From positions 1 through 64,000 of the forward strand of contig JAWODC010000090.1 in assembly GCA_046483495.1 (NCBI GenBank): DNA of 64,000 nt, read 5' to 3'. This DNA comes from Desulfobacterales bacterium (GTDB taxonomy: Bacteria; Desulfobacterota; Desulfobacteria; Desulfobacterales; UBA5616). The position numbers were made by a program. This document shows positions 18,001 through 21,000 of this stretch, piece after piece (the first letter of the stretch is position 1; the number at the start of each line of letters is the position of its first letter).

Positions 18001-21000
18001 TAAGGAAATTCCCGACTTGGAAACGAAGCAAAGAAAGATTAAATTAAAATATGAGGACCTTTGCGAACCGGTCATTGGACGGAAAAATACGAAGGAGCTG
18101 TATGACGGCATACGTCGCCTCGAACACATGAATTCACTATCCGCGATCCTGGCGTACCTGTGATTTTCGGGGCAGTGGTCCACATCGAGAAGGAGGCACT
18201 ATGGAAGATCAGGTATTGGTCACCGACATTCAAAAATTTGCCGTAAACGACGGGCCCGGTTTTCGAACCAACGTGTTCTTAAAAGGCTGCCCGATGTCAT
18301 GCCATTGGTGCCATAACCCGGAAACCATCGCACCCTATCCCGAAATATACTGGAAAAGCAGGCTCTGTCACCAGTGCGGGGCATGCCTCGAGGCCTGCCC
18401 CAACGAGGCGATTTATCCCCCTATTCCCCTTGACCAAACCCAGGATGAAAACGTCTCGTACCACAAAATAAACAGAAGCCGCTGTGACCGCTGTTTCAAA
18501 TGCGTGGAGGCATGCCCCTACGGCGCCCTGTCGATTGTCGGAAAACCGATGAGCATCGAAGAGATTCTCACAGAGGTGGAAAAAGACCGGATGTTTTACG
18601 AAAACTCCGGGGGCGGGATGACCCTGAGCGGGGGGGAACCCACTTCCCACCCGGCTTTCTCGAAAGAACTTTTGATTGCGGCAAAAAAAAGCGGGATTCA
18701 CACGTGTCTCGACACGAACGGGTTCTGTGCACAAGCGGTTCTGGAAAACCTGCTCCCCTATGTCGATATCGTTTTGTTCGACATCAAGCACATCGATGCC
18801 GCCAAGCACGAGAACGCCACCGGCGTGAGCAACGATATCGTTTTAGCGAACTTATCCATGCTCCTTACGACAGGGAAAGAAGTATGGGTTCGCATACCCG
18901 TCATTCCGGGATTCAACAACACGATGGACTTTCATGAAGCGGCATCGGACTACCTGTATCATCTCAAGGGGAATATCGCCAGAGTGGACCTGCTTCCGTA
19001 TCACAATTACTGCCAGGACAAGTATGCATGGCTGGGAATCGACTGGGTGTTGAAGGAGGCGGAAGCCATCGAGCCGTCGTTTCTGGAGATTCCGGCGGAT
19101 GTATATCGGCAGAAAGGATTTTATACCACGATTGGAGGCTCCGGCTTCGAGAATGTGTCCTCATTCGGCTAAAAACCCGTGAGTCTCAAGTTCGAAGCCG
19201 GAATTGCATCAATAAACATCAGGGAGGTAAACCATGTCCAGAAGAGATAAATGGCGTCAAGTGAGGGACAGTATCACCATGTCCAAGGGAGAAATGGGCA
19301 AAACGCTCGAAGAGCGGGAAAACATGCCGGCCAAGGCATGCGGCTACTGCAAGAACTTCTTCGAAAATGCGTATAACGCAGACGGCCGCGGTTCCTGCAA
19401 GATCCTTAAAATGGGGTCCGACCTGAAAGCAGACCCGCCGGTATTCGTGTTGGAGGGCGACACAGGCCTGATCTGTTACATCAACACCAATGCAGAGAAC
19501 TGCCCTTATTATGATCGAATGGAGCTCATCGACACGGATCTCGGCGAAATTACAGACCCGGCATACCGGCGCAGCCACCGAATTATGGAAAAGCGAAATG
19601 GGAGATAAGTACTTGCCGGGTTTTTGATAATTCGCCTTATGAGCTGTGAACTTTCAGCCTCGAGTGTCTTTAAACGAAGAGGAGCTTATGGATCTAACAT
19701 GCCACAAGTGCGGCTTTACGGCCGACCACGTCGAGTTCCGGTATCTGTGCAAATCCGGTTGACCGGCTTGCGGAGAGGCCGATCTCCGCGTGTGCCCCGG
19801 TTGCGGCACAGAATTGCTGTTTTCAAGAGCTGAAGCCTTGGAAAATGAAGATGAACAGATGAAAGAACTCTCGAAACGGCTTGCCGTGATACAAAAAGAA
19901 GACGATCCGGTACGGTTGCGGGAAGCAAAAGCGATTATCACCAAACTGCAGCAGATGAATATCCGGTGGAACATTCCTCAATTGGATGATTTCCTGAAGC
20001 AGCGGCAAAAAGACCTCTTTTTCTGAAGCTATCTCGAATAGGTTCCAATCTCACCGGATCACGACAGCAAAAGGTAAACACTATGAGCAATTTTGAAGCG
20101 AGCCTCTCCATCCCGAAGCCCGAGGAGCATTTTTTTCTTCCCGAACATGTCATCGACAACCTGGAGCGGATAAAACGGCTGGCCGAACGGCATCCCGTCA
20201 ATGTTCTCGTCACGGGGAAGCAGGGCTGCGGAAAATCCACCATGGTCAGGCAGTTTGCAGCCCGAAACAACAGGCCAATGGCTGTCTTTCAGATCGGCAT
20301 TTTGTCCGAACCCGGGCAGCTTTTCGGCGAGTATCAATTAAGGGACGGCAAAACCGTTTACCGCAAGTTTCTATTCCCCCAGGCGATTCAGACCCCGGGA
20401 TGCGTCATTCACCTGGAAGAAATCAACAGGCCTGAAAATCCAAAGGCGCTGAACATGCTGTTTTCGGTCCTTTCGGAAGATCGTCGGGTGTGGATGGATG
20501 AACTCGGCCTGATCGAGGTCGCCGATGAAGTGACATTTTTCGCCACCCTGAACGAAGGGGAAGAATTCGTGGGTACGGAAATGCTGGACGCCGCCCTGCG
20601 GGACCGGTTTTACGTGACCATGCTGGATTACCTTCCGGCTGATATCGAAACCAGGGTGCTTCATCTGAAAACCGGCATCGAAGAGGCGGAAGCATTGACC
20701 ATCGTCAATATAGCAAACAAACTTCGAAACAACACGCAGGAACCGATTGTCGTCTCCACCCGTCATACCTTGATGATCGCCGAACTCGCTGCGGTCGGCG
20801 CTTCCACGAAAGACGCGTTTATCAACAGCCTGCAGCTCAGCCGGGATATCATTGAATCCGTTCTTTTGTCCCTGCATTCCGAACTGGGCATGACCGGCGC
20901 GGGGGGGCGGAATGCATACCGTATATACTGATTTTCTGCAGGCAGGCGTAATGTCATGACTACCGGCATCTCAGAATTCTGGCGGAAAAACACTTCTCCG

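Follow-up and report, generated by a model that had tools for sequence, protein, structure and literature searches.

A predicted selenoprotein paralogous to the MasE delta subunit in alkylsuccinate synthase loci of Desulfobacterales

The window analysed here, a 64,000-nucleotide stretch of contig JAWODC010000090.1 from a Desulfobacterales bacterium, carries an alkylsuccinate synthase (ass) locus and also encodes mutase subunits, MeaB and a carboxyltransferase, as identified by family scans (Table 1). Within this locus lies a gene with the working label X, in the local order assD-assB-X-assE-VWA. The first-pass annotation had placed it in the ass locus between assD and assE; the locus is correct, but the immediate upstream gene is assB, not assD. 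The proposed link to assE and the VWA gene holds in the window and beyond it, since X is followed by assE in 49 of 57 loci, the rest being three short flanks, two loci with a second masE, and one each with assD, a ligase and another gene. In 53 of the 57 loci the gene before X is an ass gene: masE in 37, assB in 11, assC in 4 and assD in 1. As judged from gene order, X is thus shown to be linked to ass genes. BssE and BssF are described in excerpts of PMC7285207 as AAA+ and VWA proteins of uncertain function, with BssE a putative chaperone.

Table 1. Genes of the ass locus and features of gene X, numbered from the first base of the window.
Feature	Position	Strand	Basis
assC / MasC gamma subunit	1164..1328	+	search of solved structures
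assA / MasD catalytic glycyl radical subunit	1374..3872	+	1261 bits to 9O8U_A, 482 to BssA
masE (delta subunit), paralogous to the X head	4076..4303	+	E 7e-28 to 9O8U_D
assD glycyl-radical activating enzyme	18201..19172	+	TIGR02494 over cut-off
assB / MasB beta subunit, directly upstream of X	19234..19608	+	E 8e-30 to 9O8U_B
Shine-Dalgarno-like AGGAG ahead of the ATG of X (19688)	19680..19684	+	sequence
Gene X (working label), 112 codons, predicted Sec-containing MasE paralogue	19688..20026	+	read-through ORF
X residues 1-46, MasE/MASS-delta-like head with invariant C5/C8/C36/C39, predicted single-metal site	19688..19825	+	profile and fold matches
In-frame TGA, predicted selenocysteine U25 within C21-x3-U25-x2-C28	19760..19762	+	55-locus column
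SECIS-type hairpin of X, 8-bp stem, 6-base loop	19769..19790	+	pairing and covariation
X residues 47-111, three-helix bundle with conserved N91-x-R-W-N, replacing the MasE tail	19826..20020	+	AlphaFold2 model, conservation
assE, MoxR-type AAA+ ATPase	20083..20931	+	midasin E 2e-19, NorQ E 2e-14
VWA-domain protein, assF-like (label by analogy to bssF)	20956..22638	+	family scan; excerpts of PMC7285207

In the mechanical ORF list of the window, X appears only as a 78-aa GTG ORF at 19790-20026. The first-pass annotation recognised this product (g02245, 78 aa) as the tail of a 112-codon UGA read-through gene at 19688-20026 on the forward strand, and the frame, the ATG and the AGGAG all agree: past the TGA at 19760-19762, the frame stays open until the terminal TGA at 20024-20026. 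Read with selenocysteine (Sec), the spacing is C5-x2-C8-x12-C21-x3-U25-x2-C28-x7-C36-P-x-C39. The motif given earlier, CxxC-x15-U-P-A-C-x9-CPxC, rightly described a Cys-rich head but overlooked C21 and miscounted both spacers. A promoter and terminator scan gave a result at chance level. Contigs from RNA libraries cover parts of X in three of four runs, several without differences; these contigs may be DNA and do not demonstrate transcription.

Based on the aligned orthologues, the UGA at codon 25 of X is almost certainly recoded as Sec. This agrees with the original selenoprotein call, given that the UGA aligns to Cys in homologues with conserved flanks, a hairpin is specific to the UGA forms, and Sec genes are present. 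After removal of the duplicates L051, L058 and L061, 56 loci remained and 55 fit the pattern, the misfit (L077) being a Sec+Thr form. In the 55 orthologous loci the codon 25 column holds TGA 33 times, Cys 21 times and Leu once (TTA, L018); this 33:21 ratio of Sec to Cys is no census, because the pattern of the named-genome scan finds Cys forms only. Such counts also overstate the support, because related genomes are not independent and sequences rather than events are counted. The genome of the window (G000) carries selA, selB, selD and tRNA-Sec; its selD has its own in-frame TGA, and its mvhD and hdrA genes likewise contain TGA. Across the genomes with a TGA form, selA was found in 37 of 39, the two without it being 75% and 83% complete. 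It was also found in 15 of 20 genomes with a Cys form (G711 and G795 counted once), which rules out that Cys forms mark genomes without Sec machinery and indicates that selenium is not required even where it is available. Reading UGA as Trp is ruled out as well, since the orthologous column is Cys or Leu and never Trp in the 55 loci and X itself terminates with TGA.

Alternatively, the TGA of X could be a real stop or a broken codon, which would make X a pseudogene or a 24-aa peptide followed by a 78-aa protein. The many 55-90-aa tail fragments of X in databases are compatible with such a split, but they are also the expected output of gene callers past a UGA. Furthermore, the same TGA stands at the same column in 33 loci of many families, against Cys in 21, the hairpin covaries solely in TGA forms, and a split would halve the four-Cys site. 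We regard a true stop as extremely improbable.

The hairpin of X spans +7 to +28 after the UGA, with its loop at +15 to +20. On average, 6.9 of 8 stem pairs are intact in the 33 TGA loci versus 4.6 of 8 in the 21 Cys loci, which encode nearly the same peptide, and the full set of pairs 2-7 is present in 28 of 33 TGA loci versus 1 of 21 Cys loci. The fraction of paired stem cells is 86.7%, compared with 35-48% in slid controls, and 0 of 500 shuffles matched either the paired fraction or the covariation score. One stem pair is G-C in 16 sequences and C-G in 13, a compensated swap due to the Arg34 codon, which differs each time Thr takes the place of Cys28. When the window's sequence alone is given random synonymous codons, the full stem arises with P 0.026. 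The SECIS assignment of the first-pass annotation is therefore supported: the hairpin persists, with compensatory changes, among TGA forms and is largely gone from Cys forms. Its further statement that the hairpin is broken in the Cys form is mostly true, except in L012 (7 of 8 pairs) and L013 (6 of 8), and the Leu form L018 also keeps 7 of 8; the retention of most pairs in these three fits a recent loss of Sec. The Cys group L010/L012/L013/L076 is sister to Sec forms inside a mostly-Sec part of the tree. Counting against recoding, the loop is a few bases closer to the UGA than its counterparts in selD, mvhD and hdr genes of G000, which are at about +21 to +28.

The residues around codon 25 differ between the two forms. 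All 21 Cys loci and all 18 full-length Cys forms from databases keep C21, C25 and C28. The motif KxGUPACGE proposed earlier varies among the Sec forms: 15 of 33 have Thr at position 28, against 0 of 21 Cys forms even though Thr was permitted by the scan pattern, and 2 of 33 have Ser at position 21, with C21 and C28 both lost in one. Of the 33 Sec forms, 16 have an incomplete triad (14 C-U-T, one S-U-C and one S-U-T), and L072 retains U with neither C21 nor C28. On a tree of 49 rows the Sec+Thr state requires four changes, at least three of which are forced by well-supported branches; L006 (U-x-x-C) was labelled Leu in this tree, and the change counts for Leu and Sec+Cys are off by at most one, with the Cys and Sec+Thr groups unaffected. 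Neither the loss of Cys28 solely in Sec forms nor the second Sec subfamily described below was part of the first-pass annotation. Resolving thiols can be dispensable in Sec versions of thiol oxidoreductases such as Sec-MsrA. Because Cys28 is replaced by Thr in Sec forms only, redox chemistry rather than metal ligation is suggested at U25, and a structural metal site at the loop is unlikely because it would not tolerate loss of the resolving Cys. By analogy, U25 may be an exposed redox nucleophile on an Fe- or Zn-stabilised scaffold.

Matches to X occur in 35 of 401 genomes of the order, the window's own included, a renewed count that agrees with the spread reported earlier (31 of 400) while raising the number. 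Strong full-length matches number 28, spread over 26 genomes; TGA is present in 22 of these matches and absent from 6. A further 6 full-length matches with TGA are weaker. Further X loci came from a phylum search (17 of 401 genomes) and the named-genome scan (19 loci). Each of the 19 named loci with a Cys form is an ass cluster; among them are records whose titles give Desulfatibacillum alkenivorans, Dehalococcoidia and Bacillota. The earlier view that the fumarate-addition gene set of many Desulfobacterales includes a selenoprotein thus stands but missed the scope, which extends to nearly all ass loci examined and, as Cys forms, to other lineages and phyla.

With two candidates per genome scored, an AssA with at least 63% identity is present in 26 of 401 genomes, and X accompanies it in 24 of the 26. 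As for the other two, the locus of G144 runs off the contig, and G361 has a complete-looking assA-assB-masE-assE locus (L134) with no room for X, so X appears dispensable in G361. Two X genomes are without an AssA match at this level, namely G314, with an assA fragment at a contig end, and G098, which is 65% complete. The six genomes with a divergent AssA (42-46%) are exactly those with the second, weaker full-length TGA subfamily, which has C-x3-U-C/S or C-U and its own hairpin and adjoins the activase gene in 4 of 4 loci mapped. X was not found in seven genomes whose best AssA match is 37-44% identical (388-514 bits); these scores are in the BssA range, and the seven enzymes may be Bss-like. 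No full-length match to X occurs in any of the other 367 genomes.

Searched against 1.84 billion representatives, the X profile gave 69 matches, mostly tail fragments together with distant full-length forms that have CC or no Cys in the loop. P0085, P0099, P0119, P0123 and P0132 have no loop Cys and the same architecture. Three metagenome loci with the CC form lie among ass-type genes, and the loop-less forms L128 and L131 lie outside ass loci. Since distant relatives lack the loop Cys and two of that type are found outside ass loci, the basic role of the family may be structural. X can also stay with assE/assF away from assA (L039). Overall, X is a near-constant part of the alkane-activation clusters examined.

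The best PDB profile match of the X family is MasE (9O8U chain D, E 7.9e-5; next match 0.009), and hhalign of X against the window's own MasE gave 94.9% over 40 columns. The alignment stops at residue 44-46, with about 33% identity over those 40 columns only. On the strength of these comparisons, the head of X is homologous to MasE. The AlphaFold2 model (pLDDT 87.6) has a small beta head at residues 1-46 followed by helices 47-67, 74-94 and 97-111, and a Foldseek search with it returned 9O8U_D as the top row (probability 0.99, rmsd 2.9) but with E 0.4, which is weak alone. A single-sequence model of the head (pLDDT 60, poor) gave no structural match, and scores in an ESM Atlas search with X were all below 0.9. 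The bundle is without an assignable relative because the VIA-align output was filled by generic helical bundles (Z up to 8.5), and when a Cys-form X was modelled in complex with the AssE of its own locus the score was 0.00, which is no evidence either way. As first stated, no Pfam or NCBIfam family matches X over cut-off, and the two nearest families fail direct tests. The term zinc ribbon used for the head is probably wrong: two CxxC knuckles are present and the Pfam matches are all below cut-off, while the best solved relative, MasE/MASS-delta, binds Fe and the window's masE is a paralogue.

According to excerpts of a cryo-EM study (PMC12358834), MASS-delta adopts a fold like that of rubredoxin in which a single Fe is bound by four Cys, its C-terminal tail clasps the glycyl radical domain, and it overlaps with the activase site as modelled; of the subunits it is the most sensitive to oxygen, and the role it plays is termed enigmatic. 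A review of glycyl radical enzymes (PMC13450708, excerpts) names delta as their sole rubredoxin-like subunit. X resembles delta in its CxxC...CxxC head at matching spacing, its F-x-Y strand and its R-x-C-P-x-C, and it is encoded in the same loci, with masE directly upstream in 37 of 57. C5, C8, C36 and C39 are invariant among X orthologues and would hold one Fe (or Zn) as in delta. However, in X the hairpin tip is replaced by C-x3-U-x2-C/T, the tail of about 20 residues is swapped for a 65-residue three-helix bundle, and X coexists with a true masE. X probably arose as a duplicate of the delta subunit.

Among known selenoproteins, the best NCBIfam match of X is DG (NF049953; deep-Sep, PMC12013277, excerpts), also a small Cys-rich (seleno)protein of Desulfobacterota with CxxC knuckles. 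The reported score of 25 bits is right, but it reflects a generic CxxC match aligning 20 columns against a cut-off of 130 bits. DG members have about 170 aa, N- and C-terminal ribbons and a central CC/G motif, whereas X is built otherwise and its U25 aligns to a ribbon Cys rather than to the central DG site; score and architecture rule out membership. The dual CXXC motif small (seleno)protein (NF041197; OS_HP3 / DW) is likewise small, occurs in sulfate reducers and has Sec between two CxxC, but its model has 53 positions and no helical bundle. With a cut-off of 40 bits, it is not among the 14 family matches of X at E up to 10, and its own matches in five genomes sit elsewhere than X, with none in G000. 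The thiol-oxidoreductase-type UxxC and UxxT selenoproteins in Table 1 of a 2026 review (PMC13188914, excerpts) share with X the Sec/Cys interchange, both UxxC and UxxT variants, and a SECIS element right after the UGA; most of them have a thioredoxin fold, unlike the rubredoxin-like head and helical bundle of X. That table lists 119 prokaryotic selenoprotein families, those of Haft and Tolstoy 2025 among them, and no family in it takes its name from a locus for alkane activation or a glycyl radical enzyme. Other selenoprotein resources include deep-Sep (PMC12013277) and BSepDB (PMC13326102), both in excerpts. Descriptions of ass clusters name assABCDEF and masE and no X-like gene (PMC7180275; excerpts of PMC13685792 and PMC4402382), and the excerpts of PMC13685792 do not contain "seleno". 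A full-text literature search returned no paper joining a selenoprotein with alkylsuccinate, or with zinc ribbon, selenocysteine and Desulfo-. Full-length database matches of the Cys forms are unnamed or 'hypothetical protein'. Apparently, X is an undescribed selenoprotein family; its Cys form may have a locus-tag-level name or a 'hypothetical protein' entry in AK-01 data. Deng et al. 2026 reportedly describe candidate selenoproteins from groundwater genomes, and X could be among them.

What does X do for alkylsuccinate synthase? We tentatively favour, at slightly less than an even chance, an accessory redox factor that uses its selenol in the maturation, upkeep or reactivation of the enzyme, a proposal drawn from sequence and gene order. 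The tip of the central hairpin would expose a selenol that cycles between selenol and selenenyl-sulfide, with C28 as a resolving thiol needed by Cys forms and droppable in Sec forms. The helical bundle may dock X on the enzyme or on an AAA+/VWA remodelling machine (AssE/AssF), and X would keep reduced, or repair, oxidation-prone thiols during assembly or radical installation, when the enzyme is open. Candidate clients are the Fe-Cys4 site of delta, the cluster ligands of beta, gamma or the activase, and the catalytic Cys. The client is suggested because X goes with alkyl-type, MasE-bearing enzymes and adjoins assE even apart from assA. X would be non-catalytic, and it is accessory, since it is absent from G361, no X-like gene is listed in the seven-gene mas cluster described for HxN1, and the loop thiols are missing in distant relatives.

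Other roles have to be weighed against this one. X might be a metal or Fe-S carrier whose C21-x3-U25-x2-C28 loop binds labile Fe or a cluster and passes it on to the activase or to the delta, beta or gamma subunit, while AssE/AssF drive the insertion. The spacing is that of the CX3CX2C cluster motif, complete in 21 of 21 Cys forms, and AssE, next to X, resembles NorQ (E 2e-14); NorQ/NorD insert non-haem Fe. In a variant, U25/C28 and C36/C39 would form a Nop10-like ribbon with Sec as a ligand, a register seen in weak Nop10 matches (E 0.01) and in hhalign to the C-terminal ribbon of DG. A carrier is nevertheless unlikely, given the broken triad in about half of the Sec forms (16 of 33), the pairing of C5/C8 with C36/C39 by MasE homology, and the distant members without loop Cys. 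A sensor of redox state or oxygen that uses a selenenyl-sulfide switch to gate AssE/AssF or enzyme turnover, and that does not itself turn over catalytically, would share the same anatomy and linkage and would suit the oxygen sensitivity of glycyl radical enzymes and delta (PMC12358834, excerpts). We consider it very unlikely, as L072, with U and no nearby Cys partner, could not close an internal switch and domain-family scans found no regulator-like domain in X.

X could also be a fifth or exchangeable subunit that replaces delta on AssA for activation or shut-off, its selenol acting at the site of the radical, where it might, for instance, donate an H atom that quenches the glycyl radical. 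X is a delta paralogue, and its subfamily follows the AssA class: the second Sec subfamily is present in 6 of 6 genomes with a 42-46% AssA and beside the activase in 4 of 4 mapped loci. In addition, L071, L072 and L078 have X after assA-assC with no masE adjoining. Set against these points, X is missing the delta tail that grips the glycyl radical domain (PMC12358834, excerpts), its hairpin tip is not the one conserved in MasE, 22 of the 26 X genomes also carry a true masE, and in L039 X accompanies assE/assF apart from assA. We rate such a subunit, like the carrier, as a minor possibility. Its more specific version, a selenium-armed exchangeable delta swapped on by AssE/AssF whose Se-H quenches or resets the glycyl or thiyl radical as an off-switch or repair, is quite unlikely. 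If it were true, paralogues that share the MasE fold and carry interchangeable hairpin tips would together make up a toolkit of subunits that gate radicals.

As far as searched, X represents a new selenoprotein family, outside the 2026 catalogue of 119 and outside NCBIfam, and the first with a link to the anaerobic activation of hydrocarbons. The ass clusters gain a widely conserved gene that had been missing from them, one that gene callers truncate wherever UGA is used. Rebuilding active glycyl radical enzymes is a stated bottleneck and the role of delta a stated question (PMC12358834, PMC13450708, both in excerpts); a delta paralogue with a reactive selenol and easily expressed natural Cys forms makes both directly testable. 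Selenium probably helps to build or maintain the alkane-activating enzyme, and the prediction follows that alkane breakdown in sulfate reducers could be influenced by how much selenium is available.

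A second subfamily of relatives of X, the 112-codon UGA-containing gene with a MasE-like head and a helical bundle, also encodes Sec. Its loop reads C-x3-U-C/S or C-U, its helical bundle is the same as that of X, and its hairpin is its own. This subfamily occurs only in the six genomes with 42-46% identical AssA; at one locus (L027), a non-Sec paralogue stands in tandem with the Sec gene.

Sec is also missing from some relatives of X itself. One orthologue (L018) has Leu at the Sec position, encoded by a codon a single base away from TGA; since this gene also retains the hairpin and is placed within the Sec forms, the Leu codon may represent a recent loss of Sec or an assembly error. 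Two X-like proteins (L128 and L131) have the head and bundle and a loop without Cys or Sec, and no ass cluster was found on the DNA seen at either locus.

Other proteins share the MasE fold. The 65-aa protein at L079 has an in-frame TGA and a hairpin but no helical bundle; its neighbours are housekeeping genes, not ass genes, and where it has the TGA, its relative P0105 from the databases reads W followed by C. Several ass loci carry a third, unnamed paralogue, with A-D-S-A-G in the loop and a W-G tail resembling that of MasE.

Coordinates of X relatives, MasE-fold genes and further gene clusters
Feature	Location	Strand	Basis or remark
X orthologue, Leu form	L018:149-484		TTA at Sec position
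X-like proteins without loop Cys/Sec	L128:9539-9886, L131:4951-5298		head + bundle
Second Sec subfamily	L027-L030, L035:10006-10350, L137:6796-7149		loop + bundle + own hairpin
MasE-fold protein, 65 aa	L079:1450-1650 (G712:C8)	-	TGA + hairpin
Third MasE-fold paralogue	L036:4943-5188, L040:19381-19626, L081:1311-1538, L132:8820-9080		directly upstream of assD
Second assA copy	G000:C25:3622-6114 (L138)		84% identical
Second AAA+/VWA pair	window 35226-37897	-	likeness to assE/assF judged by eye
2-Hydroxyacyl-CoA dehydratase/benzoyl-CoA reductase-like cluster	window 26123-35058	+	
Radical SAM + PDZ + DUF512-like protein, 626 aa	window 6318-8198	+	
ThiS/MoaD-like protein + 173-aa protein	window 22670-23535	+	after VWA gene

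The second assA copy of the window's genome lies on another contig, accompanied by a further assA C-terminal fragment; no small subunits were detected on this 11-kb contig. In the window, a second AAA+/VWA pair, resembling assE/assF as judged by eye, is located 15 kb from the first, and several relatives also have two such pairs. The dehydratase/reductase-like cluster comprises subunits of that type, two activator ATPases and one acyl-CoA dehydrogenase-like gene. Within the ass cluster, the two mutase subunit genes flank the radical SAM gene. The 173-aa protein has no family match and recurs near ass-type loci (L032, L034, L035, L059 and L129), often with a ThiS-like gene.
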